Positions 47,763 to 64,000 of a stretch of DNA of 64,000 bases are shown here, piece after piece; position 1 is the first letter of the stretch; each line of letters starts with the position of its first letter. Made by a program: the position numbers and the translations under genes. The notes beneath the pieces are model-generated. The model ran no database searches. It was given only the letters and a program-made list of their open reading frames with translations, and was not told the DNA's origin. This stretch comes from Faecousia sp. (lineage in GTDB: Bacteria > Bacillota > Clostridia > Oscillospirales > Oscillospiraceae): the NCBI GenBank assembly GCA_045596215.1, contig JAZOBY010000070.1:636-64635 (forward strand). The letters run 5' to 3'.

Positions 47763-48989
47763 TTACTTTTTGTCCCGCTTACGGGTAAGGTAAATATCCA
47801 GTTTTTCCTTCACATTTTCGGGGATTTCTCTGGCCACAGGACACTGGGCAGCATTGGCCATGCGATCAGTAAAGGTGGTGATAAATTCGATATCCTCCAC
47901 CATCTGCTCTCCGCTCATAACTGCAACCGTGTCATAGCCGTTATGGATGGTAGCCGTATTCGGAGGAGCGATCCGTGCAAAAGACAGAGCCGGCACGCCA
48001 TTGTCCGCAAAAGGTGTGGAATCGCTGGAATAAACATCCTGCTGGACCTTGATACCAAAGCCCAATTCCGCACCAAAATACTTGATGTAATGGGTAAGTG
48101 CCTCTTCTGTGGAGCAGCAAGCAATGAACTTGCCCATGATGCAGCCGATCATATCCAGGTTGATATTCAAAACGATGTCTTTCAGTTCATCCTCGTGAGC
48201 CTGGCAATAGGCTTTTGAGCCCAGCAAGCCTCGTTCTTCACTGCCGCACCAAATAAAACGCAGACCGTAACGGTGGGGATGGTTCACAAAGTATTCCAAA
48301 ACACCCAGGATACCCACAGAGCCGGACATATTGTCATATGCACCCTGAGAAAGGGATGTGGAGTCGTAATGGGCTGTCAAAACGATGTATTCCTGACGCT
48401 CACCGGGCAGATCCGCAATCACATTATGGGATTTGCCAGTAGCTTCCTCCTGCTTAATGGTGATTCTCGCCATGGATGCCCCATCCCGTGTCAATTCAAT
48501 GGCAGACTTGGCATTGATGTTCACACCCAGGATCTTGTTACCCTTGCTGACGTAACTACGCAGTTCACGCTGGTCAATGTCGTTATCCGTATAGTTGGCA
48601 TTGCCGTCATAGGTGATAAAGCCAACCGCTCCGTTTTCCAGCAGATCCTGATACATCCAGTAGCCCAGATAACCGTCGATCATAACGATCTTTCCCTTGC
48701 ACAGAGAAAGGCTGTACGGATCGGTACTACGCAGATAGTAAAGGGGTGCTTCCACTTTCCCGCTGCCGCAGTTCAGATATCCCTTGCAGGGGATTTCCTT
48801 GCCGTCCACGGTCAGAATTGCCTGCTCCATGGTTGCCATATCCACGTCGAATTCTTCCAGCACGGCAGAAACGCCCAATTCCGTGCATTTGCTTTGCAAA
48901 TATTTAGCAGCACGCAGTTCCTCAGAAGATCCACCCATACGCACATAGGCGGTCTCTTCAAAAATTTTCATAATTTGTTTTGCATCCAT
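47763..48989 (-). CDS. M28-family peptidase
   Basis: AHYD, GAYDN, GSEERGLLGS, NLDM. Confidence 0.88.
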   Translation of the reverse strand: MDAKQIMKIFEETAYVRMGGSSEELRAAKYLQSKCTELGVSAVLEEFDVDMATMEQAILTVDGKEIPCKGYLNCGSGKVEAPLYYLRSTDPYSLSLCKGKIVMIDGYLGYWMYQDLLENGAVGFITYDGNANYTDNDIDQRELRSYVSKGNKILGVNINAKSAIELTRDGASMARITIKQEEATGKSHNVIADLPGERQEYIVLTAHYDSTSLSQGAYDNMSGSVGILGVLEYFVNHPHRYGLRFIWCGSEERGLLGSKAYCQAHEDELKDIVLNINLDMIGCIMGKFIACCSTEEALTHYIKYFGAELGFGIKVQQDVYSSDSTPFADNGVPALSFARIAPPNTATIHNGYDTVAVMSGEQMVEDIEFITTFTDRMANAAQCPVAREIPENVKEKLDIYLTRKRDKK

Positions 48990-48991
48990 CT

Positions 48992-50296
48992 TTAGACCTC
49001 CGGATCGTCTTTCAAATGGAACGCCACTTTCAGATCTTCCACTTCGTCATCAGTAATGTGAACGATGTCACCCACCTCTTTGGACAGGATAATGGAATTG
49101 GCGGTGGACTCCATTACTTCCAGCCGGTCAAAGGCCTGCAGTAAGCTCTCGCCGGTCACCACAACACAGCTGTTTTCGATCATCATGGCCGGATGCACCG
49201 GGCTGAGGGCATCGGCAGTCTTGTCAGGTTCCAGATAAACCTGGTCATAGGGCAGCTTTTTCACATCCCGCAAAAGGATATAGCTTTCCGGGATGGTGCG
49301 GGGATCGAAAACTGCATCCGTAATGGCAAATGCCATGGAATTGACAGGATGAGCCTGTAAGATAGCCTTAATCTCCGGTTGTTTCTGATAGATCTTCTCA
49401 TGGAACAAAACGGCACGAGACGGGGTTTTCCCCTGCTCCTTCATGCCGGACTTGACACGCACAAGGTCATCTTCTTCCAGATATGCCCGGTCAAAATTGA
49501 AGGGCGTGATGAGGAAGCTGCCGTCTGCCAAACGCACAGAATAGGTGCCGTGGTTGGCAGTAAACAAGCCCATCTTGTAGGAACGGCGGATGAGGGTGAT
49601 CATATCCCGGCGAGCCGCCAGTTCCTCAGACGTGCGGCTGTGGGGGATGAAATCGTCCATTTTTGTATGATAACGGGTATCGCTGATACGGTATGCATCC
49701 GTGGCAAGGGGGCGGATTGTGCCCACCTTCTTGGCCAGAACCTCCAGAGTTGCCGTATAGTGCAGCGTCTCAAAACGCTGGAAGGCTGTGAACATATCCT
49801 TTGCACCGATGCAAACACCGTGATTCTCCAGAATCGCAATGTCACAACCGGACGCAAAAACAGAACCGATCTTCTCGCCCAATGCATCACTGCCCGGTAC
49901 GTCGTATTTTGCGATCTGCACGTCCGAACAGACCTTTCGGACAGAGGGAACCAAATCCAGATTGGGGCATTTACGGGCAATGGAAAACGCCACCAATGCC
50001 GGCGGATGGGCATGCAATACCGCTTGCAGATCCGGCCGCATATGGTACACCGAGGCATGGAACGGAAGTTCCGAAGATGGCTTGTGCTGACCCACGATCG
50101 TGCCGTCAGGCTTGACGCAGACGATATCCCCACGGGATAGCGTACCCTTGTCAACGCCGGCAGGTGTGATCCAGATATTACCCTCTTCATCCTTTATGGA
50201 CAAGTTGCCACCCGAAGTGGTAGTTAGACCCTTGTCATAAATACGCTGCATAAACATGACCAATTGGTCAGCCGGGTGAATGTATTGTATATTCAT
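48992..50296 (-). CDS. Class II aldolase with two tandem domains
   Basis: GGNLS, KPSSE, HAHP, ENHG in domain 1; degenerate second copy. Confidence 0.85.
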   Translation of the reverse strand: MNIQYIHPADQLVMFMQRIYDKGLTTTSGGNLSIKDEEGNIWITPAGVDKGTLSRGDIVCVKPDGTIVGQHKPSSELPFHASVYHMRPDLQAVLHAHPPALVAFSIARKCPNLDLVPSVRKVCSDVQIAKYDVPGSDALGEKIGSVFASGCDIAILENHGVCIGAKDMFTAFQRFETLHYTATLEVLAKKVGTIRPLATDAYRISDTRYHTKMDDFIPHSRTSEELAARRDMITLIRRSYKMGLFTANHGTYSVRLADGSFLITPFNFDRAYLEEDDLVRVKSGMKEQGKTPSRAVLFHEKIYQKQPEIKAILQAHPVNSMAFAITDAVFDPRTIPESYILLRDVKKLPYDQVYLEPDKTADALSPVHPAMMIENSCVVVTGESLLQAFDRLEVMESTANSIILSKEVGDIVHITDDEVEDLKVAFHLKDDPEV

Positions 50297-50311
50297 AATA
50301 ATCTCCTTAAC

Positions 50312-51769
50312 TCAAAATGTAAGCAAACGCTGATAGCCTTTCTCCCAGTCTTCTGTGTGATTGGGCTGATAGGTTTCAACAGTCTCAGAATTGCGGACGA
50401 TCTGACGCAGTTCGTCAATATCCTTGATATCACCAAGGGCCATAGCCTGAGCCAGCAGGTTGCCAATAGCTGCACCTTCCACCGGGCCGGTGATCACAGG
50501 GCGGTTAATGGAATCTGCCACCATCTGATTGAGCAGCTTGTTCTGAATACCGCCGCCAACGATGTTCAGCGTATCGATGCTCTGACCCTTGATCTCTTCC
50601 AGTCGCTCCAATGCCCAACGGTATTTCAGTGCCAGGGACTCGTAGATACAACGGGCGATTTGCCCCACAGTCTCCGGAACAGGCTGATTTGTGTCAGCAC
50701 AGAACTTCCGGATCTTCTGCACCATATTGCCACCGGCAAAGAATTCGCTGTAATCGGGATCAATGATGCTGCGAAGGGGTTCAGCTTTCTTGGCTTCCTT
50801 CACGATATCATCCCAACTGTACTTTGTTCCTGCTTTGATCCAGTCTCTGCGGCACTCCTGGATCAGCCACAGACCCATGATGTTCTTCAAGGGGCGGAAG
50901 CCGCCCTGAATGGTGCCCTCATTGGCAAAGTTGGCATCACGCACTTCCGGCGTCAGAATGGGCACATCCGTCTCCACGCCAAAGAGAGACCATGTACCGG
51001 AGGAACAAAACGCAAAGCTGCCGCTTCCGGGAATCGCTGCAACGGCGGATGCGGTATCGTGGGTGCCCACAGCGGCAAAATTCGCCTGATTAAGTCCAAA
51101 TTCCTCTGCCAGTTCCGGACGGAGCTTGCCACGCAGAGTGCCGGCCTGGTCGATTTCTGTAAAGATATGCTCCGGGATTCCCAGTGCTCGGATGCTATCC
51201 CAGTCCCAATCCCGGGTGGTGGGGTTGTAGAGCATGGATGTAGTAACATTGGTATACTCAGACTTCATTTCCCCAGTGAGGAAATAGCCCAGAAGATCGG
51301 GCATCATCAGAAGCTTCTGTGCCTGCTCCAAAGCCACATCATTTTGCCGCTTCCGGCGATAAAGCTGGTAGACAGTATTAAAATTCAGCTTTGCAATGCC
51401 GGTGCGGCTGAACAGTGTGGGAAAATCCACAATTTCAGATGCTGCGTCCATATCCTCGTCCACGCTGTAGCGGTATGCCCGGGGATTGCCCAACAGGTGT
51501 CCGTTGCGGTCCAGCAGACCGTAATCCACGCCCCAGGTATCAATACCAAAGCAGTCAAGGTCGCCAACGTTCGCCTGCTTGAAGGCCAGGAAGCCCTGTT
51601 TCAGCTGATTATAAAGATAAGGCAGATCCCAGTAGCAAACACCGTTCATCTCCACATAATTGTTTTCAAAACGGTGCAGCTCCCGCATGGTCAGTTTGCC
51701 GTTTTCCAACTGGCCCAAAATGGCACGGCCGTTGCTTGCACCCAAATCAAAAGCAAGTAAATTTCTCAT
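50312..51769 (-). CDS. rhaB: Rhamnulokinase/fuculokinase-like sugar kinase
   Basis: DLGASNGR, GIDTWGVDY, HDTASA, SSGTWSL, KNIMGLW. Confidence 0.85.
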   Translation of the reverse strand: MRNLLAFDLGASNGRAILGQLENGKLTMRELHRFENNYVEMNGVCYWDLPYLYNQLKQGFLAFKQANVGDLDCFGIDTWGVDYGLLDRNGHLLGNPRAYRYSVDEDMDAASEIVDFPTLFSRTGIAKLNFNTVYQLYRRKRQNDVALEQAQKLLMMPDLLGYFLTGEMKSEYTNVTTSMLYNPTTRDWDWDSIRALGIPEHIFTEIDQAGTLRGKLRPELAEEFGLNQANFAAVGTHDTASAVAAIPGSGSFAFCSSGTWSLFGVETDVPILTPEVRDANFANEGTIQGGFRPLKNIMGLWLIQECRRDWIKAGTKYSWDDIVKEAKKAEPLRSIIDPDYSEFFAGGNMVQKIRKFCADTNQPVPETVGQIARCIYESLALKYRWALERLEEIKGQSIDTLNIVGGGIQNKLLNQMVADSINRPVITGPVEGAAIGNLLAQAMALGDIKDIDELRQIVRNSETVETYQPNHTEDWEKGYQRLLTF

Positions 51770-51857
51770 AAGTATCAACCTTTCTGTCCCCTCCAAATGA
51801 TGGACGACCATAGATTTGCATATATATGATATCGTAAAAAAGTCTTTCTGTCAAATA

Positions 51858-51895
51858 GAATCCCGCCCTCTGCGGTCGCATAGGGCGGGGATTCT
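51858..51895 (-). terminator. Terminator
   Basis: AGAATCCCGCCCT...AGGGCGGGGATTCT. Confidence 0.6.
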
Positions 51896-54405
51896 CATAA
51901 TTGGCTTTTTGCGGTATCGGTGCCGTCGCCAACAAGCCCTAAACGCTCTGCCGCGTCCTGGCGCATCTTGTATTTCAGCACCTTGCCCGCAGCGTTCATG
52001 GGGAACGCATCCACAAACTCGATGTATTTGGGTACTTTATGCCGTGCCATGCTGGCTTTGATGTAAGCAAGCATTTCGTCCACCGTGACCGAACCCGCTT
52101 CTTTCAGCACGATACTGGCGTAGATCTCCTCGCCGTATTTCTGATCCGGTACGCCGATGACCTGTACATCCTTGACAGCTGGATGGGTATAAATGAACTC
52201 CTCGATTTCCTTGGGATAGATATTCTCACCGCCGCGGATGATCATATCTTTCAAACGACCGGTAATACGGTAATTGCCCGCTTCGTCACGACAGGCGATG
52301 TCACCGGAATGGAGCCAGCCTTCCGCATCCACTGTATCCGCAGTTGCCTGGGGCATCTTGTAATAGCCCTTCATGGTATTGTAACCACGGGAGCAGAATT
52401 CACCGTTGACGCCCGGGCCGACCTCTTCCCCAGTCTCCGGGTCAATGATCTTACATTGCACATACGGGAATGCATAGCCAACAGTATCGGTTCGCACTTC
52501 CAGAGAATCTGTCCAGGCAGACATGGTAGAGCCGGGAGCAGATTCCGTTTGACCGTAAACGCTGACGATGCCCCGCATATTCATTTCATCCGGTTGAGCA
52601 GCTCGTCGCATCAGTTCCGGAGGACAACCGGCACCGGCCATAATGCCGGTACGCATATGAGAAAAGTCCGTCTTGCGGTAGTCCGGATGGTTGAACATGG
52701 CAATAAACATGGTGGGCACGCCATTAAATGCAGTGATCTTCTCCTGATTGATGCAGGCCAAAGATGCCTTAGCAGAGAAATAAGGCATGGGGCACATGGT
52801 GGCACCGTGGGTCATGGAAGATGTCATGGACAGCACCATGCCAAAGCAGTGGAACATGGGTACCTGAATCATCATGCGGTCAGCTGTGGAAAGGCCCATG
52901 CGGTCACCGATACATTTGCCGTTGTTGACCACGTTGTAGTGGGTAAGCATAACGCCTTTGGGGAATCCTGTGGTGCCGGAGGTGTACTGCATGTTGCAAA
53001 CATCATCCGGGCGGACGGCAGCCGCCATAGCGGCAACCTGTTCCTCGCTGACCAGCGGGTATCTTGCCATAGCCTCGTCCATAGTCAGACATCCCGGCTG
53101 ACGGAAGCCTACCGTAATCACATTACGCAGGAACGGAAGCCGTTTACAGTGCAGGCTCTCCCCTGCCTTGGTCTGAGCGATCTCGGGGCACAGTTCGTTG
53201 ATGATGGCCTGGTAATTGGAGTCCAAACAGGAGTCGATCATCACCAACGTGTGGGTATCGGACTGACGAAGCAAATATTCCGCCTCGTGGATCTTATAGG
53301 CGGTATTGACGGTGACCAAAACCGCACCGATCTTTACTGTTGCCCAGAACGTGATATACCAAGCCGGGACATTGGTAGCCCAAATGGCGACCTTACTGCC
53401 GGCTTTTACACCCATGGACACCAACGCCCGGGCAAAACGATCCACATCCCGCTTGAATTCCTGATAGGTACGGGTATAGTCCAGGGTCGTATACTTAAAA
53501 GCATACTGATCCGGGAATTCATCAGCCACACGCTCCAAAACCTGATAAAAGGTCAGATTGATCAGTTCGTCCTTCTTCCACAGGTACTGACCTGTGCCGT
53601 CGTGATTCAAATAGAGGGATTTCTTTGCACCGCGGGGATTATGGAAGCGGCTCATGTAGTTGACAAAGTAAGGAAAAATAACATCCTGATCTTTCAGATC
53701 GTCCAGCCACTCCGGTTTCCATTCCAGGGAGATGAAGCCATCGTAATTGACGGAAGACAATGCCCGCATTACATCGGCAATGGGCATGGTTCCCTCACCA
53801 ATCAGCTGATAATTGCCCTGGTCGTCAGAATCCCGCAGGTGGACATGCCGGATATAACTGCCCAAATTTTTGATGGTAGCATCTGCACTTTCGCCCAAAT
53901 CACGGTAGGGATGGTGCATATCCCAAAGGGCACCCAAAAAGTCGCTGGCAAAGCGATCCATCATACTGCGAAGACGAGCAGTATCGGCATAAATACCGCT
54001 GGTTTTCAGCAAGATGCCCACGCCCAGTTTTTCCGCCTGGGGAAGTAAAATTTGAAGCCGTTGCTCTACAAGCACTTCATTATCGCTCAGGGCACAGGCA
54101 ACCACATACGGCACACGGGTATTGCCCGCAACCTCCATGAGGTCGAGCAGTGAATCGGTGTGGTCCTCCGCATCAGCAAGATCGCAGGAAGTGTCAAAAC
54201 AAGGGATCTGCAGTTTCTTATCCCGCAGCTGACGGACAGTGGCCGCAGACTGATACTTGTGAAACGGCCCGCCCCGGTCCAGCATGGGATCAAATTTGGG
54301 AAGATTATAGACTTCAATGCCGGAAAAACCCATTTCTGTGGCCGTATCCAGCATCTCATCCCAACTCATCCCGGGCCAACCACGGGTTGAAAAGGAGAGT
54401 TTCAT
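51895..54405 (-). CDS. Fusion of xylose-isomerase-like TIM barrel and acyl-CoA synthetase
   Basis: N-term WDMHH, HVHLRD, GEG, YDGFISLEW; C-term YTSGTTGFPKG, YGQTE, GWLHSGD, GRLKDMIIRGGEN. Confidence 0.9.
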   Translation of the reverse strand: MKLSFSTRGWPGMSWDEMLDTATEMGFSGIEVYNLPKFDPMLDRGGPFHKYQSAATVRQLRDKKLQIPCFDTSCDLADAEDHTDSLLDLMEVAGNTRVPYVVACALSDNEVLVEQRLQILLPQAEKLGVGILLKTSGIYADTARLRSMMDRFASDFLGALWDMHHPYRDLGESADATIKNLGSYIRHVHLRDSDDQGNYQLIGEGTMPIADVMRALSSVNYDGFISLEWKPEWLDDLKDQDVIFPYFVNYMSRFHNPRGAKKSLYLNHDGTGQYLWKKDELINLTFYQVLERVADEFPDQYAFKYTTLDYTRTYQEFKRDVDRFARALVSMGVKAGSKVAIWATNVPAWYITFWATVKIGAVLVTVNTAYKIHEAEYLLRQSDTHTLVMIDSCLDSNYQAIINELCPEIAQTKAGESLHCKRLPFLRNVITVGFRQPGCLTMDEAMARYPLVSEEQVAAMAAAVRPDDVCNMQYTSGTTGFPKGVMLTHYNVVNNGKCIGDRMGLSTADRMMIQVPMFHCFGMVLSMTSSMTHGATMCPMPYFSAKASLACINQEKITAFNGVPTMFIAMFNHPDYRKTDFSHMRTGIMAGAGCPPELMRRAAQPDEMNMRGIVSVYGQTESAPGSTMSAWTDSLEVRTDTVGYAFPYVQCKIIDPETGEEVGPGVNGEFCSRGYNTMKGYYKMPQATADTVDAEGWLHSGDIACRDEAGNYRITGRLKDMIIRGGENIYPKEIEEFIYTHPAVKDVQVIGVPDQKYGEEIYASIVLKEAGSVTVDEMLAYIKASMARHKVPKYIEFVDAFPMNAAGKVLKYKMRQDAAERLGLVGDGTDTAKSQL

Positions 54406-55802
54406 GCTTCTTCCTCCTCGTAAACGATCTTGTTAAGGGCACTGAGATACGCCTGAATGCTTGCACCCACGATGTCCGTGGAGATGCCACGACCGGAATA
54501 GAGTTTTCCGGAAGAACGAAGCTTGACAATGGTCTGACCCATAGCCGCACGACCCTCGGTAACAGACTGAATTTGGAAATCGTCCAGCTCATAATGGCGA
54601 CCGGTGATCTGCTCAATGGCCGCAAATGCCGCATCAATAGGACCGTCGCCCAGATATACGCCCTCCATAGGCACGCCGTTTTTCAGCAATTTCATATGTG
54701 CGGTCGCAGCTACTGTATTGCCGGATGTAATCACGTAATTATCCAGCTTATATGCGGACGGAACCTGCATAGCAGCAGAGGCCACAATGGCATCCAGTTC
54801 CCGGATCCCCACCTTGTCCCGCTTCTGTGCAAACTGCATGAAGGCCTCGTAAACTTTCATGCGATCTTCCTGAGAAAGATCATATCCCAGACGCTCTACT
54901 GCGGCACAAACCCCATCACAGTCGTCGTGGGAAGTCAAATAAATCTCGGAATTTTCCTGCACTTCATTGCCAAACCAGGAAACCTTGCTGCCATCCGCTT
55001 TGCAAATTCGCTGGATCTGCTCCACGATTCGGCTGAGCTTGGTCACATTAACATCCGTCTTTACACCCAATTCCTCGCCCTTGGCGGCCAAAACACGGGA
55101 TACATTGGTCATGTCAGCACAATCCTGAGGATATGCTGCACACTTAACCTCCCCTGCCCCTGCCTTGATTGCAGCAATGACACAGCTGTCGGCCATGGAC
55201 AAGGTGTTGGCACATCCCACACCCAGTGTGACCGTTTTCAATGCGGGAACGGAAGCGTACAAAGACGCAACAAATGCAGAGAACTCCTCAGGCAGCATTG
55301 TCCCGGCAGTATCTATCACGGTAACCGTCTTGGCACCGGCAGCAATCGCCGTTTCGATGGCCTTAAACAAAAATGCGGGCTCGCTTCTGGTGGCATCCTG
55401 AGCAACAAACTCCGTATCCGTCAATTTCCCACAGGCATGCACCGTCTCATCGATCGCCGAAAGCATTGCCTCAGGCTTTTTATGGAGCAAATACTCCATT
55501 TGCACAGAACTGACCGGTGCACACACTTGCAGGCGTGAGTGTTTAGCCAGACAAAGTGCGTTCCAGGTCTGCTCTACGCTCTCGGCAGTCAGTTCGACCG
55601 GGGCAGAAACGATGCTGTCATTTACAGCCGCAGCAATGGACTTGATCCGCAGAATATCAGAGCGAGAACCACGCAGACCTTCTACCTCAATCACAGTTGT
55701 GCCCAATCTGTCCAATAGTTTTGCCAACTCGATCTTCTCACGGAAGGACAAAGAAAAACCCTCCGCAGTCTGTTTCATGGTCATGTCGCTGATTTTGATC
55801 AT
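54402..55802 (-). CDS. 2-isopropylmalate synthase (LeuA)-like protein lacking catalytic motifs, regulatory domain intact
   Basis: QDATR, DTAG, GDGPIDAAF, TDIVGAS present; RDGEQ, HxH and GERAGN absent. Confidence 0.85.
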   Translation of the reverse strand: MIKISDMTMKQTAEGFSLSFREKIELAKLLDRLGTTVIEVEGLRGSRSDILRIKSIAAAVNDSIVSAPVELTAESVEQTWNALCLAKHSRLQVCAPVSSVQMEYLLHKKPEAMLSAIDETVHACGKLTDTEFVAQDATRSEPAFLFKAIETAIAAGAKTVTVIDTAGTMLPEEFSAFVASLYASVPALKTVTLGVGCANTLSMADSCVIAAIKAGAGEVKCAAYPQDCADMTNVSRVLAAKGEELGVKTDVNVTKLSRIVEQIQRICKADGSKVSWFGNEVQENSEIYLTSHDDCDGVCAAVERLGYDLSQEDRMKVYEAFMQFAQKRDKVGIRELDAIVASAAMQVPSAYKLDNYVITSGNTVAATAHMKLLKNGVPMEGVYLGDGPIDAAFAAIEQITGRHYELDDFQIQSVTEGRAAMGQTIVKLRSSGKLYSGRGISTDIVGASIQAYLSALNKIVYEEEEA

Positions 55803-55822
55803 TGTCTGTCACTCCTTAAAAT

Positions 55823-56074
55823 AAAAAGTCCCTGAGGCCGTATAGCCTCAGGGACGAATAAGCTTCGCGGTACCACCCTGATTATTTCCGCAACGGAAAT
55901 CCCTTTAGACTCCAACAAGTCCTATCCCTTAACGCGGGCCGACGGATCCCATTACTTGCGGATGCTTTTACAGGATCGACTCCGGAACCAGACCGTCTCA
56001 TTCAACCGCACCGGCTCACACCAACCGCCGGCTCTCTGGAGCTTTATGAATGTGACAGATTTTCCATCGCTGTC
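55823..56074 (-). ncRNA. T-box riboswitch, Leu (CUG) specifier
   Basis: AGAGA and GGTG motifs; CTG at 55991-55989; AATCAGGGTGGTACCGCG; terminator. Confidence 0.9.
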
Positions 56075-56169
56075 TTTCGTATAACATTGCCAATATTAAA
56101 GCACAGGATTTGGAATTTGTCAACAAAAATCTTTCAAAAAAATATTTTTTGTTTTTCACAAAAAAGCAA

Positions 56170-56198
56170 TTGACTTTTGCTCGTGAACATGCTATACT
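56170..56198 (+). promoter_or_regulatory. SigA promoter
   Basis: TTGACT, 17 bp, TATACT with upstream TG. Confidence 0.75.
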
Positions 56199-56217
56199 GC
56201 AACCAATATTTCAAAAA

Positions 56218-56475
56218 GGCTTTGACGAAGACGGTCGGATCCGAAGAATTACAGAGAGCCGGTGGTTGATGCGAATCGGTATTCTTCCCTCCACAGACCC
56301 ATCCCTTCCGAGCCGGAGTGCTGAATATTTTACATTAGTAAGCATCTCCCGTTTGCCTGCGTTAAGGGATAGGACTTGTTTGAGTCCGAAAAGTGGCAGT
56401 TATTCTGCAATTTGAGTGGTACCGCGGGTAGTTTATGCTCGTCTCAAGATTTTTCTTGAGGCGTTTTTTTATTTT
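56218..56475 (+). ncRNA. T-box riboswitch, Ile (AUC) specifier
   Basis: AGAGA motif; ATC at 56301-56303; AATTTGAGTGGTACCGCG at 56409-56426; terminator 56440-56470. Confidence 0.88.
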
Positions 56476-56492
56476 ATAAAGGAGGAAGCACT

Positions 56493-58781
56493 ATGTCAAA
56501 CACAACAACGTCTACACAGCTGATGGAGATCGCACAGCGAATTCGGGAGATGCGTGAGATTTTAGGCTTCAGCATTGAAAAGATGGCAACGCAGACAGAG
56601 GTTTCCACCGATCTTTACTGCCAATATGAAAGCGGCACGATTGATCTGCCCTTTACCTTTATGCACAAGTGTGCAAAAGCCTTTGGCCTGGAAATCACCG
56701 ACCTGTTGGAAGGCCACAGTGCCAAATTGTCCGGCTACACAGTCACCCGACGTGGTAAAGGTATGGTCACCGCCAGCGAGGATGGCATCACCATTCAGGA
56801 TATGGCACCTATGTTCCGCAAGAAGCTGGCTACCCCCTACTGGGTTACCTATCAGTATTCCGAAGATCTTCAGGATGAACCCATCCACACCACCACCCAC
56901 GACGGTCAGGAATTCAACATGGTCATCAAAGGTTCCGTTCGTATCCGTGTCGGTGACCACGAGGAAGTTCTTAACGAAGGTGACAGCATCTTCTATAAAT
57001 CCTCCACCCCTCATGGTATGATCGCCATTAACGGTGAGGATGCGGTCTTCCTTTCTATGATCATGGCCAGCGACAAGACAGACCAGGCACTGACAATTAC
57101 TCCTCAGCGTACCACGAAGTCCCCAGACCCCGATCTCCACCCGGATCAGCGTCTGCTTTGCAACGAATTTGTTTGGGGTATTGAGGATGCTAAGGGTCAC
57201 ATGACCGGCCTCAACTATGCCAACACGGACCGCTACAACTTTGCATTTGATACTGTGGATGCCATCGCACGGAAGGATCCAGACAAGCTGGCGATGATCC
57301 ATATTGCGGGCGATATGACCGAACGCCGCTTCACCTTTAAGGACATGAAGGACGGTTCTTCCCAGTGTGCCAATTATTTCAAGGCTCTGGGCATCAAACG
57401 GGGTGACCGGGTCATGGTGGTGCTGAAACGCCACTATCAGTTCTGGTTTGCCATTCTCGGTCTGCATAAGCTGGGTGCCATTGCCATTCCTGCGACAAAT
57501 CAGCTGATGGAACACGATTTCACCTACCGCTTCCAGGCAGGCGGAGTCAGTGCAATTCTCTGTACTGCAGATGGCGATACTGCCAATCAGGTAGATTTGG
57601 CCGAGCACGTATCCGGCATGAAACTGACTAAAATCATGGTAGGTGGACAGAAAGAAGGCTGGCATGACTTTAATGAAGAGTACAGCCTGTACAGCCGCCG
57701 TTATGTCCGTACTGATGACGCACCCTGTGGTGATGATCCCATGCTGATGCTCTTCACCTCCGGCACTACTGGCTATCCCAAGATTGCAATGCACAGCTAT
57801 AAATACGCTCTCGGCCACTATGTCACCGCCAAATACTGGCACATGGTGGAGCGGGACGGCGTTCATTTCACCATCTCCGAAACCGGCTGGGGCAAGGCAC
57901 TTTGGGGCAAGCTCTACGGCCAGTGGCTTTGCGAGAGTGCAGTCTTTACCTATGACTTTGACCGCTTCGACGCAGAAAAGATCCTGCCCATGTTTAAGCA
58001 GTACAACATAACTACCTTCTGTGCACCGCCGACCATGTACCGGATGCTGATCAAACAGGATCTGAGCAATTACGACCTCTCTTCCATCCATCATGCCACC
58101 ACCGCCGGTGAAGCATTGAACCCTGAGGTCTTCTATCAGTTTGAAAAAGCTACCGGTCTGCGGATCTACGAGGGCTTCGGTCAGACGGAAATGACCCTGG
58201 GCATCGCAAACCTCATCGGCGACACCATCAAGCCCGGTGCAATGGGTAAGCCTATTCCCGGCTATGGTATTGACATTGTGGATGCTGACGGCAATCCTGT
58301 GGAAGACGGCGTCAATGGTGAGATCGTCATTCACACCGATCCTGCCCCCTCCTGTGGCGTGTTCCTCGGCTATTACAACAATGCAGAAGCCACCGGTGAG
58401 GTCTGGCACGACGGAATGTATCACACCGGCGACCTTGCCTGGCGTGATGAGGATGGTTACTACTGGTATGTGGGCCGTGCGGATGACGTGATCAAGTCCT
58501 CAGGCTACCGGATTGGGCCCTTTGAAATCGAAAGCACCATCATGGAGCTTCCCTACGTTCTGGAATGTGGCGTTTCTGCCGCTCCCGACGAGGTTCGTGG
58601 ACAGGTTGTCAAGGCCAGCATCGTACTGGTTCCCGGCACCGAAGGTACGGAAGAACTGAAAAAGGAAATCCAAAACTACGTCAAGCAGCACACTGCTCCC
58701 TACAAGTATCCCCGGATTGTTGTGTTCCGCGATGAACTGCCCAAAACCATCAGCGGTAAAATCATTCGTAACAAGTTATAA
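56493..58781 (+). CDS. XRE-HTH/cupin/acyl-CoA synthetase fusion, paralog 1
   Basis: N-term HTH, HDGQEF cupin, FTSGTTGYPK, GFGQTE, YHTGD, KSSGYRIGPFE, PKTISGK. Confidence 0.92.
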   Translation: MSNTTTSTQLMEIAQRIREMREILGFSIEKMATQTEVSTDLYCQYESGTIDLPFTFMHKCAKAFGLEITDLLEGHSAKLSGYTVTRRGKGMVTASEDGITIQDMAPMFRKKLATPYWVTYQYSEDLQDEPIHTTTHDGQEFNMVIKGSVRIRVGDHEEVLNEGDSIFYKSSTPHGMIAINGEDAVFLSMIMASDKTDQALTITPQRTTKSPDPDLHPDQRLLCNEFVWGIEDAKGHMTGLNYANTDRYNFAFDTVDAIARKDPDKLAMIHIAGDMTERRFTFKDMKDGSSQCANYFKALGIKRGDRVMVVLKRHYQFWFAILGLHKLGAIAIPATNQLMEHDFTYRFQAGGVSAILCTADGDTANQVDLAEHVSGMKLTKIMVGGQKEGWHDFNEEYSLYSRRYVRTDDAPCGDDPMLMLFTSGTTGYPKIAMHSYKYALGHYVTAKYWHMVERDGVHFTISETGWGKALWGKLYGQWLCESAVFTYDFDRFDAEKILPMFKQYNITTFCAPPTMYRMLIKQDLSNYDLSSIHHATTAGEALNPEVFYQFEKATGLRIYEGFGQTEMTLGIANLIGDTIKPGAMGKPIPGYGIDIVDADGNPVEDGVNGEIVIHTDPAPSCGVFLGYYNNAEATGEVWHDGMYHTGDLAWRDEDGYYWYVGRADDVIKSSGYRIGPFEIESTIMELPYVLECGVSAAPDEVRGQVVKASIVLVPGTEGTEELKKEIQNYVKQHTAPYKYPRIVVFRDELPKTISGKIIRNKL

Positions 58782-58797
58782 ATAGCATAGATAACCC

Positions 58798-58826
58798 TTG
58801 ACATTCCTGCGTTAGAGTGGTATCAT
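58798..58826 (+). promoter_or_regulatory. SigA promoter
   Basis: TTGACA, 17 bp, TATCAT with upstream TG. Confidence 0.75.
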
Positions 58827-58842
58827 TTTTTAGTAGAATAAA

Positions 58843-59093
58843 GGCGAAGACGGAGAGTTTCCACAAGCTTCCCATCGAAAGAGAAATGGCGGTCGGTGCA
58901 AGCCATGATGGGTTTTGTTGATTGTCGCTCCATCAGCCGGAAGGAAGAAAGCAACCGCCTGTAGAACCTTCCCGTGTCGGCCGCGTCAGTGCCTAATGAG
59001 TGGTATCTGCAATGGCAGATGCAATTTGAGTGGTACCGCGGGTATGTATTGTACAAACTCGTCTCAAAGGTTATCTTTGAGACGAGTTTTTTC
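58843..59093 (+). ncRNA. T-box riboswitch, Val (GUC) specifier
   Basis: AGAGA and GGTG motifs; GTC at 58924-58926; AATTTGAGTGGTACCGCG at 59023-59040; terminator 59056-59092. Confidence 0.86.
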
Positions 59094-59111
59094 AAATTTG
59101 TGAGGTGCTTT

Positions 59112-61400
59112 ATGGACAAGATCATTACCGGAGTGGACAATAAAAACCGGGAAGTTGCGGCCCGTATCCGGGAACTTCGTGAAGTAACGGGGTTCACGGT
59201 AGAAGAAATGGCTGCACGCACCGGTCTGAGTGTTGAAGAATATCTGGCGTGCGAATCCGGCAACCGGGATCTGAGTATTGCGTTTTTGTACCACTGTACA
59301 TTAAGCTTTGGCGTGGACATGGGCGACCTTTTGGAAGGCCGCAGCCCCAAGCTTCGTTCTTACGCACTGACACGAAAGGGTCAGGGTCAGCGAATTGAAG
59401 AAGCCCACAACATGATCGGCTTCAACCTGGCGGCGGACTTCCGTAACCGTATTGCCCTACCGCTTTATATGGATCTTCCCTACCGTCCCGGTGCGGAGAG
59501 TGAGCCCATCCCCCTGACCACCCACTAAGGTCAGGAATGTGACATCGTCATCCGTGGTCATATGCGTATCCAGATCGGCGGACATACGGAGATCCTGCAT
59601 CCCGGCGACTGTATTTACTACAACAGTGCAACGCCCCACGGCATGGTAGCTGTAGACGGTGAGGACTGTGCATTCTACGCAATTGTTCTGCGTAACCAGG
59701 CCGCCCGTGAGGGCGATCACGATGCAACAGTGGTCTCCCCTGCGCAACTGGTTCAAACCCATGAAGAAGATTCCCGTATCTATCACGATTACATCGAAAC
59801 CACCGTAGAAAACGGTGTTCTGACCAAGATCGACTTCAAAAATCCGGATAAGTTCAATTTCGCCTTTGATGTGGTGGATGAACTTGCCCGGAGAAAGCCG
59901 GACAAGCTGGCCATGCTCCATCTTGCTGAGGACGGCACGGAGCATCGGTTTACCTTTAAGGATATCCAAAAAGAATCCGCTCGTGCGGCCAACTTCTTTA
60001 AATCCCTGGGTATCCAAAAGGGCGACCGGGTTATGCTGGTTCTGAAGCGGCACTATCAATTCTGGTTCGCAATGATGGGCCTGAATAAGCTGGGTGCAGT
60101 GGCAATCCCCGCCCCGAATCAGTTGCTGACCAAGGATTTTGCCTATCGGTTTGAGGCCGGCAATGTAAAAGCGATCCTCTGTACCGCAGACGGTCAGGTA
60201 GCCGATTCTGTGGATGAAGCAGCCGCATCCTGCCCGGTACTGAAAACCAAGATCCTGGTTGGCGGTAAGCGAAACGGCTGGCACGACTTTAACGAAGAGT
60301 GTGCCATGTTCAGCAGTCGCTTCCCCCGGACCGACGACGCACCCTGTGGCGATGACCCCATGCTCATGTTCTTTACATCCGGCACATCCGGTTATCCCAA
60401 ACTGGCAGCTCACAATCACAAGTATCCTCTGGGACACTTTATTACCGCCAAGTACTGGCACCGTGTTAATCCAGACGGTCTGCACCTGACTATCTCCGAT
60501 ACTGGGTGGGCAAAGTCCATGTGGGGCAAGCTCTATGGTCAATGGCTGTGCGAGGCGGCGATCTTTGTCTACGACTTCGACCGCTTTGATGCCGAAAAGA
60601 TCCTGCCCTTGTTCGCCAAATACGGCATCACCACCTTCTGTGCACCGCCTACCATGTATCGAATGCTGGCAAAGCGGGACCTCAGCCGTTTCGATCTGAG
60701 CTCCATCATTCACGCATCTACTGCGGGCGAGGCATTGAACCCCGAGGTCTACCGCCAGTTCCAAAAGGCAACCGGTCTGAGCATCATGGAAGGCTTCGGT
60801 CAGTCGGAAAGCACCCTGATCATCGGCAATACGGGCGGCAGCAGCCACAAGCTTGGCTCCATGGGCAAACCCGTACCTCTTTACGATGTGCACTTACTTG
60901 ATCCCGACGGCAACGAAGTAGACACCGGTGAAACCGGTGAGATCTGCATCAATATCAGCAACGGTCTACCCTGCGGCCTTGCCTATGCCTATGAAGGCAA
61001 CCCGGAAGTCACCGCCGAAACATGGCGTGACGGTTTCTACCACACCGGCGATCTTGCATGGAAAGACGAGGATGGCTACTACTGGTATGTGGGCCGTGCG
61101 GATGATGTGATCAAATCCTCCGGCTACCGGATCGGACCCTTTGAAATTGAAAGCACCATTATGGAACTGCCCTACGTTTTGGAATGTGGTGTTTCTGCCG
61201 CTCCCGACGAGGTTCGCGGCCAAGTGGTCAAGGCGAGCATCGTTCTGGTCAGCGGCTATGAAGGCAGCGACGCTCTGAAGAAAGAAATTCAGGACTATGT
61301 CAAACGCCGCACCGCTCCTTACAAGTATCCCCGAATTGTGGAGTTCCGTGAAAGCCTTCCCAAGACTACCAGCGGCAAGATCATCAGAAAGCAACTGTAA
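59112..61400 (+). pseudogene. XRE-HTH/cupin/acyl-CoA synthetase fusion, paralog 2, with one in-frame TAA at 59526-59528
   Basis: Same 2289-nt length as paralog 1; TTH*GQE versus TTHDGQE; frame continues after the stop. Confidence 0.8.
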
Positions 61401-61402
61401 TT

Positions 61403-62095
61403 ATGGAACATAAACGCGTAACCCTTTTCGCCGGACATTACGGCTCCGGCAAGACCAATATTGCCGTAAATTACGCACTTTACCTTGCCAAAGAGGGCAA
61501 AAAAGTGTGCATCGGCGATCTGGATATCGTCAATCCCTACTTTCGTACCAAAGACAGTGCGGATGTACTGGACGCGGCAGGCGTGGAGCTGATCAGCCCG
61601 CAATTTGCCAACACCAACGTGGATCTGCCGGCCTTGCCGGCGGAGGCGTACCGCTTGGTGGAAGACAAAAGCATCTACGCCATCATGGACATCGGCGGCG
61701 ATGACCGGGGTGCTTATGCCCTGGGCCGTTATACACCGGCAATTCTGGCAGAGAACGATTACCGAATGGTTTTCGTCGCCAACTGCTACCGCCCATTGAC
61801 CAAAACACCGGAAGATGCACTGGACGTGATGCGGGAGATTGAGGCCGCCTGCGGCATGAGATTTACCTGCATCGTCAACAATTCCCACCTGGGAGAGCTG
61901 ACCACACCACAGACGATTATTGACTCTGCCAAATATATCGAAAAACTGTGCGATATGTCCGGTCTTCCCCTGTGGCTGACCACTGCCAAGGAAGATGTGG
62001 CAACACAGATGGACGGCACCTTCCCCCTGCACTTGCAGGAAAAATACTTTGATTTACCGCCTCAGAAGCCGGTCAACCGGCCCCTGTGGGGATAA
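61403..62095 (+). CDS. P-loop NTPase associated with the oxidoreductase operon
   Basis: GHYGSGKT, DLDIVNPYFR, DIGGD. Confidence 0.8.
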   Translation: MEHKRVTLFAGHYGSGKTNIAVNYALYLAKEGKKVCIGDLDIVNPYFRTKDSADVLDAAGVELISPQFANTNVDLPALPAEAYRLVEDKSIYAIMDIGGDDRGAYALGRYTPAILAENDYRMVFVANCYRPLTKTPEDALDVMREIEAACGMRFTCIVNNSHLGELTTPQTIIDSAKYIEKLCDMSGLPLWLTTAKEDVATQMDGTFPLHLQEKYFDLPPQKPVNRPLWG

Positions 62096-62118
62096 AGATT
62101 CTTTAAGGAGGAACCCCA

Positions 62119-62325
62119 ATGGCAAAAGTTACATTCAAAACCGACTTGTGCAAGGGCTGTGGCCTGTGTGTCAACGCCTGCCCCAAGGGTATCCTGGCGA
62201 TTGCCACCGATACGATCAACAAAAAAGGCTATTCTCCCGCGGTCATGATCGATCAGGAAAAGTGCATCGGCTGTGCATTCTGTGCCACCATGTGCCCTGA
62301 CTGCATCATCACCGTAGAGAAGTAA
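62119..62325 (+). CDS. 2x[4Fe-4S] ferredoxin subunit of 2-oxoacid:ferredoxin oxidoreductase
   Basis: CKGCGLCVNACP and CIGCAFCATMCP. Confidence 0.93.
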   Translation: MAKVTFKTDLCKGCGLCVNACPKGILAIATDTINKKGYSPAVMIDQEKCIGCAFCATMCPDCIITVEK

Positions 62326-62336
62326 GGAGGTAAATT

Positions 62337-63398
62337 ATGGAACAGAAAGTTCTGATGAAGGGCAACGAAGCCATCGCTGAGGCTGCCATCCGTGCCGGCT
62401 GTCGCCATTACTTCGGATATCCCATCACACCCCAAACGGAAATTGCCGCATACATGGCTAAGAAAATGCCCAAAATCGGCGGTGTTTTTCTGCAAGCGGA
62501 AAGCGAAATTGCATCCATCAACATGGTTTACGGTGCTGCCGCGGCCGGTATGCGTGCCATGACCTCCTCTTCCAGCCCCGGAATCTCTCTGAAAACCGAA
62601 GGTTTGAGCTACATCGCCGGCTCTGACGTGCCTGCATTCGTCGTCAACGTACAGCGCGGCGGCCCTGGTCTGGGTGGTATTCAGCCTTCTCAGTCCGACT
62701 ATTTCCAGGCAACCAAGGGCGGCGGCCATGGCGACTATCGCATGATCGTCCTGGCTCCCGCTTCCGTGCAGGAAATGGCCAGCCTGACCATCAAAGGCTT
62801 CAACCTGGCTGACAAGTATCTGATGACCGCGATGATCCTTGCTGACGGCACCATCGGTCAGATGATGGAACCCATTTCCTTTGAAGATGCCGAGATTGAG
62901 AAGTACGAAAAGCCCTGGGCACTCACCGGCACCAACTGCGAGCGTAAGCACAACATCGTAAACTCCCTGTACTTAAAGCCGGAGGAGTTGGAAGTCAAGA
63001 ACTTTGAACGCTACGAGCGTTACAAGATCGTAGAAGAAAACGAACCCATGTGGGAAGAGTACATGATGGATGACGCGGAGTATTGCGTCGTAGCATTCGG
63101 TATCGCATCCCGTGTGGCCAAGAATGCTGTTGTTGCCGCCCGTGCTGAGGGCATCAAGGTGGGTCTGATCCGTCCCATCACCCTGTGGCCCTTCCCCACA
63201 AAGGCTCTGAACGCCGCTGCTGACAAGGTCAAAGGCTTTATCAGCGTGGAGCTGAATATGGGTCAGATGATTGAAGATATCAAGCTGGCAACGGAGTGTA
63301 AAAAGCCTGTCGCCCTGTGCAACCGCACCGGCGGCATGATCCCCAGTCCTGACCAGGTTCTGGAATCCATCAAAAACGCAACGAAAGGAGTTTACTGA
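62337..63398 (+). CDS. vorB: 2-oxoacid:ferredoxin oxidoreductase alpha subunit (VorB-like)
   Basis: [42 protein letters not shown]. Confidence 0.88.
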
Positions 63399-63399
63399 T

Positions 63400-64000
63400 A
63401 TGGCAGTCGTATTTGAAAAACCCAAGGCACTGACCGATGCAGTGCTCCACTACTGCCCCGGCTGTCCCCACGGCATTATCCACCGTTTGGTCGCTGAGGT
63501 TCTGGATGAACTGGGCATTGAAGGCAAGGCCATTGGTGTTGCACCTGTTGGCTGTGCCGTTATGGCATACGATTACTTTGCCTGTGACATGATCGAGGCT
63601 GCCCATGGCCGTGCTCCGGCTGTTGCAACCGGCATCAAGCGTTGCCGCCCCGAAAACGTGGTCTTTACCTATCAGGGCGATGGCGACCTGGCTTCCATCG
63701 GTATGGCCGAAACCGTCCATTCCGCCGCCAGAAACGAAAATATTACCATCATCTTTGTCAACAATGCAATTTACGGCATGACCGGCGGTCAGATGGCTCC
63801 CACTTCCCTGCCCGGACAGGTCACCCAGACCTCTCCTTACGGTCGTGACGTGAAGCATTGCGGCTGGCCTATCCGTGTCAGCGAGATGCTGGCAACCCTG
63901 GAAGGCCCTGAGTACATTGCCCGTGTGGCAGTCAATAACGTCAAGAACGTGAAAAACGCCAAGAAGGCTATCAAGAAGGCCTTTGAAAACCAGATCGAAG
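63400..64000 (+). CDS. 2-oxoacid:ferredoxin oxidoreductase TPP-binding beta subunit, 3'-truncated by the window edge
   Basis: [41 protein letters not shown]. Confidence 0.9.

Follow-up and report, generated by a model that had tools for sequence, protein, structure and literature searches.

Three T-box leaders and three acyl-CoA ligases suggest tRNA-gated salvage of branched short-chain acids in Faecousia

In the uncultured gut bacterium Faecousia (Oscillospiraceae) we describe a gene cluster in which each of three acyl-CoA ligases lies behind its own T-box leader. The cluster is probably a tRNA-gated salvage pathway, by which leucine, isoleucine and valine would be made from isovalerate, 2-methylbutyrate and isobutyrate. 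It lies at the end of the window, a stretch of 64,000 nt (GenBank assembly GCA_045596215.1, contig JAZOBY010000070.1, positions 636 to 64,635), and runs on to a second contig (Table 1). A preliminary description of this DNA had read the acid of each ligase from the amino acid of its T-box, and this reading, a prediction from sequence, agrees with every computational check. We found no paper in the literature describing such a T-box-gated branched-acid cluster.

Table 1. Features of the cluster in the window and on contig C71 of the same genome.
Feature	Position	Strand	Basis or detail
TIM-barrel::acyl-CoA ligase fusion	51895..54405	-	Pfam AMP-binding and AMP-binding_C
LeuA-like pseudoenzyme, 466 aa	54402..55802	-	Pfam HMGL-like barrel and LeuA_dimer regulatory domain
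Leu leader terminator	55828-55855, then U-run	-	
Leu T-box leader	55847-56079	-	RF00230, 110.1 bits; specifier CUG at 55989-55991
Candidate promoter of Leu leader	56095..56123	-	TTGACA, 17 nt, TTTAAT; read from sequence and alignment
Promoter of Ile leader	56170..56198	+	TTGACT, 17 nt, TATACT, with TG
Ile T-box leader	56213-56449	+	RF00230, 97.7 bits; specifier AUC at 56301-56303
Ile leader terminator	56440-56463, then U-run	+	
HTH_19-cupin-acyl-CoA ligase, Ile type (Gly467), 762 aa	56493..58781	+	Pfam; Ile clade
Promoter of Val leader	58798..58826	+	TTGACA, 17 nt, TATCAT, with TG
Val T-box leader	58838..59093 including terminator; RF00230 match 58838-59069	+	Specifier GUC at 58924-58926
Val leader T-box core	59028-59041	+	Sequence
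Val leader terminator hairpin and U-run	~59057-59093	+	Sequence
HTH-cupin-acyl-CoA ligase, Val type	59112..61400	+	Alignment; Val clade; Ala at WIT position
P-loop NTPase (CbiA/ParA-like, weak match)	61403..62095	+	Pfam, below cut-off
VorD-like ferredoxin subunit, 68 aa	62119..62325	+	Translation: two CxxCxxCxxxCP motifs (4Fe-4S)
VorB, alpha subunit of 2-oxoisovalerate-type 2-oxoacid:ferredoxin oxidoreductase (VOR)	62337..63398	+	NF005507
VorA, TPP-binding beta subunit, cut at window end	63400..64000	+	Pfam, NCBIfam
VorC (gamma)	C71, 151-687		tblastn; best match though below its cut-off
IlvE	C71, 700-1770		NF009897, 496.8 bits (cut-off 307)

Results

The RF00230 model matched at all three sites for which T-boxes had been claimed, and each leader has UGGU and a competing terminator. 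The Leu and Ile leaders exceed the RF00230 gathering score of 93 bits. The Val leader scores 73.9 bits, under this threshold, yet it matches the model over its full length (1-219, E 7e-16), has the T-box core and terminator, and has orthologues in relatives; GGAG of its 5′ stem pairs with CUCC once a 1-nt shift is corrected. Specifiers were read at the column of the model where valS shows GUC. This column was calibrated within the genome, where it returned the right amino acid for 9/9 T-box-controlled aminoacyl-tRNA synthetase or trp genes (ValRS, TyrRS, MetRS, IleRS, ThrRS, PheS, AlaRS, CysRS and one trpB operon). Read at this column, the specifiers were the same as those claimed, CUG (Leu), AUC (Ile) and GUC (Val), and in all three leaders this codon is in the loop of Stem I, adjacent to a 4-bp stem and a K-turn. 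Moreover, AUC followed by C also occurs in this genome's ileS leader, as in the leader of the Ile ligase. Both hexamers of the candidate Leu-leader promoter are kept in 10 relatives in the alignment, and the Ile-leader promoter is also conserved among relatives. The assembly contains tRNA-Leu(CAG) and tRNA-Val(GAC), both with A73, which matches UGGU. tRNA-Ile(GAU) was not found in this assembly (80.6% complete), a point that we count against the salvage pathway.

A leftward operon with a synthetase under the Leu T-box had been described. The ligase is indeed behind this leader, but a LeuA-like gene comes first, its stop codon overlapping the start of the ligase gene. The LeuA-like protein resembles LeuA in having an HMGL-like barrel and a C-terminal LeuA_dimer domain, but falls under the cut-off of every LeuA model (283.6 vs 532). 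Against 3RMJ, it has GCANT in place of HCHND and has lost GERAGN, and it carries DMTMKQTAE where LeuA has DTTLRDGEQ (catalytic Arg/Asp); the HxH metal ligands, like the catalytic residues, are absent from 31/31 orthologues. We rejected it as a true LeuA, since catalytic, metal and substrate residues are gone and no leuBCD partners were found in the genome; as a partner of the ligase it may sense leucine. In the ligase itself, a xylose-isomerase-like TIM barrel (residues 20-232) is joined to an acyl-CoA ligase (residues 290-808). It scores 667 bits to NF009233, under that model's cut-off of 832, and stays under the cut-offs of all other NCBIfam models too; the subfamily is poorly characterised. 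In relatives it is invariably preceded by a Leu T-box and the LeuA-like gene. It is a candidate isovalerate-CoA ligase, the least secure of the three substrate assignments, with the T-box as sole pointer.

All three ligases carry AMP-binding (PF00501) and AMP-binding_C (PF13193) domains. The Ile- and Val-type ligases are paralogues, 60% identical, whose ligase domains match MacsMa of Methanosarcina acetivorans (3ETC; E 7e-181 over 516 residues). MbcS is the best NCBIfam match of both types. By sequence the two HTH-cupin ligases are relatives of MbcS and not equivalogs, because their scores (434.6 bits for the Ile type, 435.1 for the Val type) fall under the equivalog cut-off of 850. They share the Trp of AKYW with MacsMa and MbcS; unlike these enzymes, they add an N-terminal HTH_19 and cupin module of ~240 residues, and they are encoded in linkage with VOR and under T-box control. 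MacsMa prefers 2-methylbutyrate (PMC10455477), while MbcS of Staphylococcus aureus accepts 2-methylbutyrate and isobutyrate and takes isovalerate poorly (PMC10026030). A different type of ligase behind the Leu T-box fits this picture, in which the nearest characterised enzymes take the other two acids and little or no isovalerate. At the WIT position the Ile type has Gly, as MacsMa does, and the Val type, unlike MacsMa, has Ala; the Gly type is a candidate 2-methylbutyrate-CoA ligase and the Ala type a candidate isobutyrate-CoA ligase. The second synthetase of the preliminary description does lie behind the Val T-box, but in the assembly its frame is broken inside the cupin motif by an in-frame TAA at 59526-59528. 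This nonsense codon is also counted against the salvage pathway. Position 59526 is G (GAA) in 4/4 related metagenome runs, and the orthologues of the Val-type ligase are intact. Among the runs listed as holding the locus, none was of RNA.

We compared ~100 loci from relatives across Oscillospirales. In these loci, Ile T-boxes precede 74 ligases, Val T-boxes (GUA or GUC) precede 45, and Leu T-boxes (CUC or CUG) precede 25 pairs of LeuA-like gene and TIM-barrel ligase, with zero cross-assignment; synonymous switches of the specifier (CUG/CUC, GUC/GUA) preserve the amino acid. In the ligase tree, 44/45 Val-gated ligases group in a single clade free of Ile-gated ligases, and the Ile/Val label costs 2 changes where the minimum possible is 1. 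Gly467 is found in 74/74 Ile-type ligases and Ala in 44/44 of the Val type, and no other residue of the ligase domain separates the two types perfectly. In the alignment this position falls on the Ile of 'WIT' in Acs, a motif lining the acyl pocket (PMC8383264). Most residues separating the two types lie in the HTH-cupin part, at positions 45-116.

These comparisons bear on whether the ligases are acid-specific at all. The three switches might just turn the genes on whenever any branched-chain amino acid runs short, with the specifier not predictive of specificity; MbcS (PMC10026030) and MacsMa (PMC10455477) each use at least two branched acids. Moreover, the one-switch-per-ligase layout is common but not universal: three relatives lack a separate T-box for the Val-type ligase, and several genomes encode only one HTH-cupin ligase, which is under an Ile T-box and upstream of VOR. 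We nevertheless consider non-specific ligases unlikely, given an old duplication into Ile- and Val-gated clades that was retained across families, the perfect Gly/Ala discrimination at a pocket position, and the Leu T-box that always precedes another ligase family.

The ligases had been said to feed one oxidoreductase. A single VOR was found in the 80.6% complete assembly, but its operon does not end with the window, continuing past the contig onto C71 with VorC and IlvE. As in VorABCD, the delta, alpha, beta and gamma subunits are encoded separately and in that order, and VorB is above its subfamily cut-off (547.6 bits, cut-off 399). Unlike in known VOR, a P-loop NTPase gene precedes vorD, and its position between ligase and VorD is conserved in relatives, where the genes have this order too and the last one encodes IlvE or an amino-acid dehydrogenase. 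VOR and IlvE are located behind the Ile and Val leaders only and not behind the Leu leader. This too counts against the salvage pathway, as it leaves the response to leucine-only starvation unexplained.

Lastly, we searched for the canonical pathway, a check that the preliminary description had proposed. The Faecousia genome yielded no ilvB, ilvC, ilvD or leuBCD, although at 80.6% completeness absence from this assembly alone is weak evidence; its sole aconitase and Iso_dh genes are an acn/icd pair. In five relatives of 98-100% completeness ilvC, ilvD and leuB were not found, and ilvD is missing from 23 of ~25 genomes with the full-length ligase. It is very improbable that the ligases chiefly provide branched acyl-CoAs to prime the synthesis of branched-chain membrane fatty acids, with amino acids secondary. 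The best NCBIfam match is MbcS, whose role shown in Staphylococcus aureus is the supply of lipid primers (PMC10026030, PMC11167679), but the score is far under the equivalog cut-off (434 vs 850). Regulation through tRNA charging, the co-transcription with VOR and IlvE and the unsuccessful search for ilv/leu genes all argue for amino-acid supply. Operon context suggests that VOR runs in the synthase direction. VOR catalyses reversible reactions and is most familiar as an enzyme of amino-acid fermentation in archaea and Clostridia; even so, it is scarcely credible that the cluster runs oxidatively, fermenting branched-chain amino acids via IlvE and VOR to acyl-CoAs and acids, since a T-box turns genes on at amino-acid scarcity, the wrong signal for breakdown, AMP-forming ligases push acid to acyl-CoA at a cost of two ATP equivalents with no energy conserved in reverse, and the normal biosynthetic route is missing from these organisms.

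Discussion

In the salvage pathway that we propose, each acid would be activated by its own AMP-forming ligase, isovalerate by the TIM-barrel fusion, 2-methylbutyrate by the Gly type and isobutyrate by the Ala type. A single four-subunit VOR (VorDBAC) would then reductively carboxylate the acyl-CoAs with reduced ferredoxin, and IlvE would transaminate the 2-oxoacids. The specifiers are predicted to pair with tRNA-Leu(CAG), tRNA-Ile(GAU) and tRNA-Val(GAC). The T-boxes would act as transcription attenuators in which uncharged tRNA stabilises the antiterminator, such that a ligase would be made only under shortage of its amino acid.

T-boxes of this kind have precedents. The ilv-leu operon of Bacillus subtilis is under a Leu T-box, and the valS, ileS and leuS leaders of Firmicutes are likewise T-boxes. 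The Faecousia leaders have the same parts as these, a Stem I bearing the K-turn and specifier loop, a UGGN bulge and a terminator with antiterminator, and are predicted to follow the same logic, in which uncharged cognate tRNA calls for supply of that amino acid. They differ in their targets, which are acid-activating ligases, a ferredoxin-dependent oxidoreductase and IlvE rather than ilv/leu enzymes, aminoacyl-tRNA synthetases or transporters, and in that three switches of different specificity adjoin, one per ligase. Predicting the function of a downstream gene from the specifier is an established approach (PMC7778990, PMC2494555).

Each ligase may also carry a protein-level sensor besides its RNA switch, a suggestion that we make tentatively and hold to be doubtful. 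The Ile and Val ligases could be 'trigger enzymes', at once ligase and DNA-binding regulator, or allosterically controlled enzymes, through their HTH-cupin module. A trigger enzyme of this sort would resemble BirA, where the adenylate serves as corepressor. That the residues separating the Ile and Val types lie mostly in the HTH-cupin part fits sensors diverging together with substrate. In the Leu operon, the dead LeuA with its leucine-binding regulatory domain, translationally coupled to the ligase, could be a subunit that senses leucine and shuts off isovalerate activation.

The chemistry proposed for the salvage pathway, from acid to acyl-CoA to 2-oxoacid to amino acid, is that of rumen anaerobes, in which labelling in the 1960s-70s found isovalerate, 2-methylbutyrate and isobutyrate to be reductively carboxylated to leucine, isoleucine and valine, and the habitat, that of gut and rumen Clostridia, is alike. 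The rumen pathway was defined by labelling and growth requirements, whereas the Faecousia cluster is known from its genes, with amino acids assigned via riboswitches. The riboswitches label candidate genes of the branched-acid pathway by amino acid.

Leaders and specifiers

The preliminary description had reported three T-boxes with CUG (Leu), AUC (Ile) and GUC (Val) specifiers ahead of the acyl-CoA ligases, and this is borne out by Rfam and Infernal searches together with a calibration on the genome itself. An Rfam scan returned three T-boxes above the gathering score in the window, namely the valS leader and the two divergent leaders. The Val leader of the second ligase is the fourth, scoring 73.9 bits against a gathering score of 93 (E 7e-16) and covering model positions 1-219; its sequence carries the UGGUACCGCG core, and a terminator hairpin of 13 bp runs into UUUUUU. 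Good sigma-70 promoters lie upstream of the Ile leader and, at 58798-58826, of the Val leader, and the leftward promoter of the Leu leader is kept in ten relatives; the divergent Leu and Ile promoters span 56095-56198.

At the specifier column of the Infernal alignments, the valS leader and the second rightward leader both have GUC, the leftward leader has CUG and the first rightward one AUC. This column was calibrated on all 13 T-boxes of the Faecousia assembly (G000), where the RF00230 specifier calling proposed as a check was also right for the aminoacyl-tRNA synthetase leaders and the trpB operon: UAC for TyrRS, AUG for MetRS, AUC for IleRS, ACC for ThrRS, UUC for PheS, GCC for AlaRS, UGC for CysRS and UGG for trpB. 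The pyrimidine 3′ of the AUC codon in the Ile ligase leader is unusual, yet is no objection, since the ileS leader likewise reads AUC followed by C. G000 encodes tRNA-Leu(CAG) and tRNA-Val(GAC), both with discriminator A73, matching UGGU, whilst tRNA-Ile(GAU) was not found in the assembly.

Features of the window and of other loci discussed in the text
Feature	Position	Strand	Remark
Rhamnulokinase, aldolase-like and peptidase-like genes	47763-51811	-	
TIM-barrel ligase	51895-54405	-	
LeuA-like gene	54402-55802	-	
Terminator of Leu leader	55828-55855	-	
Leu T-box leader	55847-56079	-	Rfam, above gathering
Ile T-box leader	56213-56449	+	Rfam, above gathering
Terminator of Ile leader	56440-56463	+	
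Ile ligase	56493-58781	+	
Stretch identical in protein, Ile ligase	58400-58640	+	
Val T-box leader	58838-59069	+	permissive scan of 58600-59700
Val ligase	59112-61400	+	
In-frame TAA	59526-59528	+	
Stretch identical in protein, Val ligase	61020-61260	+	
P-loop NTPase	61403-62095	+	
HMGL-like, aconitase, ICDH-like row	C47:10788-15688		G000 contig (locus L068)
Phe T-box operon	C69:8353-15900		G000 contig (L067:354-7879)
Trp T-box, operon downstream	C59:7369-7596		G000 contig (locus L009)
T-box-like Stem I	L086:8328-8433		locus of a relative

Genes behind the leaders

The Ile leader precedes a 762-aa HTH_19-cupin-ligase and the Val leader a paralogue 60% identical to it. In its ligase domain, the Ile enzyme matches MacsMa (PDB 3ETC, E 7e-181), which prefers 2-methylbutyrate as substrate (PMC10455477). 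MbcS is the best NCBIfam model for both enzymes, with both scores well under its cut-off; MbcS itself activates 2-methylbutyrate and isobutyrate, isovalerate being a poor substrate (PMC10026030). These preferences fit a pair of Macs/MbcS-like enzymes under the Ile and Val T-boxes, with the Leu T-box governing a ligase from a different subfamily.

The Val ligase contains an in-frame TAA inside the cupin motif, aligning with Asp137 of the paralogue. Since all orthologues are open, and contigs from two studies, covering four related gut metagenome runs, have G at position 59526 (GAA, Glu), the stop is either private to this assembly or an error. Over ~75 residues of the C-terminal domain the two paralogues share the same protein sequence. 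Approximately one codon in three differs synonymously there, which rules out gene conversion and makes strong purifying selection the cause.

Behind the Val ligase follow, in order, a P-loop NTPase, a 68-aa ferredoxin with two 4Fe-4S motifs, VorB (547.6 bits, cut-off 399) and a TPP-binding beta subunit, the last three being subunits of a 2-oxoisovalerate-type oxidoreductase (VOR). The contig ends 145 nt beyond the window, and its continuation, C71, begins with VorC and IlvE (NF009897, 496.8 bits, cut-off 307). The P-loop NTPase (230 aa, weak CbiA/ParA matches) keeps its place between ligase and vorD in almost every locus, and might serve as a maturation factor of this Fe-S enzyme.

The first gene behind the Leu leader encodes a 466-aa protein that combines an HMGL-like barrel with a LeuA_dimer domain and scores far under every LeuA cut-off. 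It lacks the HxH metal ligands (GCANT instead), GERAGN and the Arg/Asp of DTTLRDGEQ; HxH is absent from 31/31 orthologues, among which the active-site positions vary freely. The regulatory domain is kept, the protein is conserved and its partner is always the TIM-barrel ligase. The latter, whose start overlaps the stop of the LeuA-like gene, is an 836-aa protein in which a xylose-isomerase-like TIM barrel is fused to an acyl-CoA ligase. Its ligase part scores highest with NF009233 (667 bits, cut-off 832), a cut-off passed in 1 of 14 model genomes used as a control. A homologous-protein search aimed at naming this ligase returned only relatives at 88-100% identity, called 'AMP-dependent synthetase' or 'AMP-binding protein'. 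The TIM-barrel ligase is directly followed on its strand by a rhamnulokinase, a double class II aldolase-like protein of 434 aa and a peptidase-like gene of 408 aa; the rhamnulokinase adjoins the TIM-barrel ligase in locus L069 too.

Two further T-box operons were observed in G000. In one, a UUC (Phe) T-box leads into an acyl-CoA ligase of 557 aa, a sodium/solute symporter of 508 aa, IorA (586 aa), IorB (190 aa), a PaaK-like phenylacetate-CoA ligase (440 aa) and an ORF of 143 aa. With its ligases and indolepyruvate oxidoreductase, this operon looks like an aromatic counterpart, predicted to convert phenylacetate to phenylalanine. In the other, a UGG (Trp) T-box is followed by a membrane protein of 172 aa and by a 410-aa ORF, TrpB-like as judged from its first residues only; this operon may serve tryptophan salvage from indole.

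Conservation of specifier and ligase

The closest public locus to that of the host, Faecousia sp. (Oscillospiraceae), is 96% identical. GTDB species genomes hold at least 599 loci, mostly in gut and rumen MAGs, and the full-length HTH-cupin ligase is present in many families of the order. A look for expression found no RNA run listed as carrying the locus. We searched 100 loci with a Stem I covariance model built from the 13 G000 leaders, calling the specifier after a check of stem complementarity; the Val specifier of the window was itself placed by stem complementarity, the custom model being one base off. HTH-cupin ligases lie behind Ile (AUC) T-boxes in 74 cases, behind Val T-boxes in 45 (35 GUA, 10 GUC) and behind a low-scoring GGG in one, with 18 having no T-box of their own. 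LeuA-like/TIM-ligase pairs follow a Leu T-box in 25 cases (14 CUC, 11 CUG), and no T-box was detected in six. Since the changes of specifier are synonymous (GUA/GUC, CUC/CUG), it is the amino acid that is conserved. The odd, low-scoring calls were GGG in L136, GAA in L138 and GCA in L086. The last belongs to a T-box-like Stem I between an Ile-type ligase and the P-loop gene, a place occupied in relatives by the Val ligase, and may be a remnant after loss of that gene.

In a tree of 138 ligases, 44 of the 45 Val-gated enzymes group in a single clade (52 rows) from which Ile-gated enzymes are absent. The Ile/Val label needs two changes on this tree, the minimum being one, and a smaller IQ-TREE run gave SH-aLRT values of 99 and 97 for the two clades. 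Comparison of 74 Ile-type with 44 Val-type sequences identified 12 columns conserved within each type and differing between them, 11 of which lie in the HTH-cupin part. The sole discriminating column of the ligase domain, in TGW[G/A]K, is Gly467 in 74/74 Ile-type and Ala in 44/44 Val-type enzymes. Its counterpart in acetyl-CoA synthetase 7KDS is the Ile of GWITGH, and the 'WIT' motif encloses the acyl-adenylate's alkyl group (PMC8383264); in MacsMa the residue is Gly. The extra pocket methyl predicted for the Val-gated enzyme would parallel the one-carbon gap between 2-methylbutyrate and isobutyrate, which is suggestive, not proof.

Arrangements vary. In three relatives a Val-type ligase directly follows the Ile-type without its own leader, several genomes have a single ligase behind an Ile T-box and then VOR, and gene order near the Leu operon differs between loci. 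The usual cluster end is VorC and IlvE, whilst some Faecousia relatives end with a Glu/Leu/Phe/Val-type amino-acid dehydrogenase. The layout of one ligase per amino acid put forward in the preliminary description, each with a switch of its own, is therefore common, though not universal.

The canonical route

A genome check for ilvBCD and leuBCD had been proposed. We found no ilvB, ilvC or ilvD in G000 (80.55% complete), and no true leuCD/leuB either, the only aconitase being a PRK07229-type aconitate hydratase. This enzyme (647 aa) sits in a row between an HMGL-like gene (481 aa), probably a Re-citrate synthase, and an isocitrate-dehydrogenase-like gene (369 aa); the row looks like a citrate-to-2-oxoglutarate branch. 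Across 61 genomes (G000 and 60 relatives, which are kin and not independent), ilvD is missing in 23 of ~25 with the full-length ligase and present in 15 of 36 without it. In five cluster-holding genomes that are 98-100% complete, none of ilvC, ilvD and leuB scored above cut-off.

A proposed tRNA-gated salvage route

These data are best read as salvage, gated by tRNA, in which branched acids become Leu, Ile and Val. Ligases gated by tRNA would convert the acids to acyl-CoA, VOR running in the synthase direction would yield the 2-oxoacids, and IlvE would complete the amino acids. VOR and IlvE are placed behind the Ile and Val leaders only, and induction under leucine shortage alone is unexplained by this layout. 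In the divergent promoter region only the two promoters are conserved, and no conserved palindrome that could serve the HTH domain as an operator was seen there.

The serious rival is that the ligases are broad and non-specific, as genomes with a single ligase would suggest; the split into clades and the pocket residue argue against it. A role in making lipid primers, as in S. aureus, would leave both the tRNA control and the linkage to VOR and IlvE unexplained. Oxidative fermentation is unlikely, as scarcity is what triggers a T-box, and AMP-forming ligases consume ATP to activate the acid.

It has been known for sixty years that branched short-chain fatty acids are required by many anaerobes that degrade fibre in the gut and rumen, and dairy cattle receive these acids in feed. 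To our knowledge, the genes behind this requirement are poorly defined. T-boxes, VOR, short branched-chain ligases and the pathway as defined by labelling are already known, and prediction of function from specifiers is an established approach (PMC7778990, PMC2494555). In a full-text literature search with look-ups in PMC3766115, PMC2494555 and PMC7778990, we found no paper describing T-boxes on these genes or an arrangement with one ligase for each amino acid. Here, T-boxes lie over salvage of fermentation end products, not de novo synthesis. The riboswitches label the candidate genes by amino acid, allowing direct and cheap tests (three ligases, three acids) and thereby making an old nutritional question directly testable. 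Moreover, presence of the cluster with absence of ilvC and ilvD would provide a genomic marker of cross-feeding dependence, applicable to a large uncultured group of Oscillospirales.
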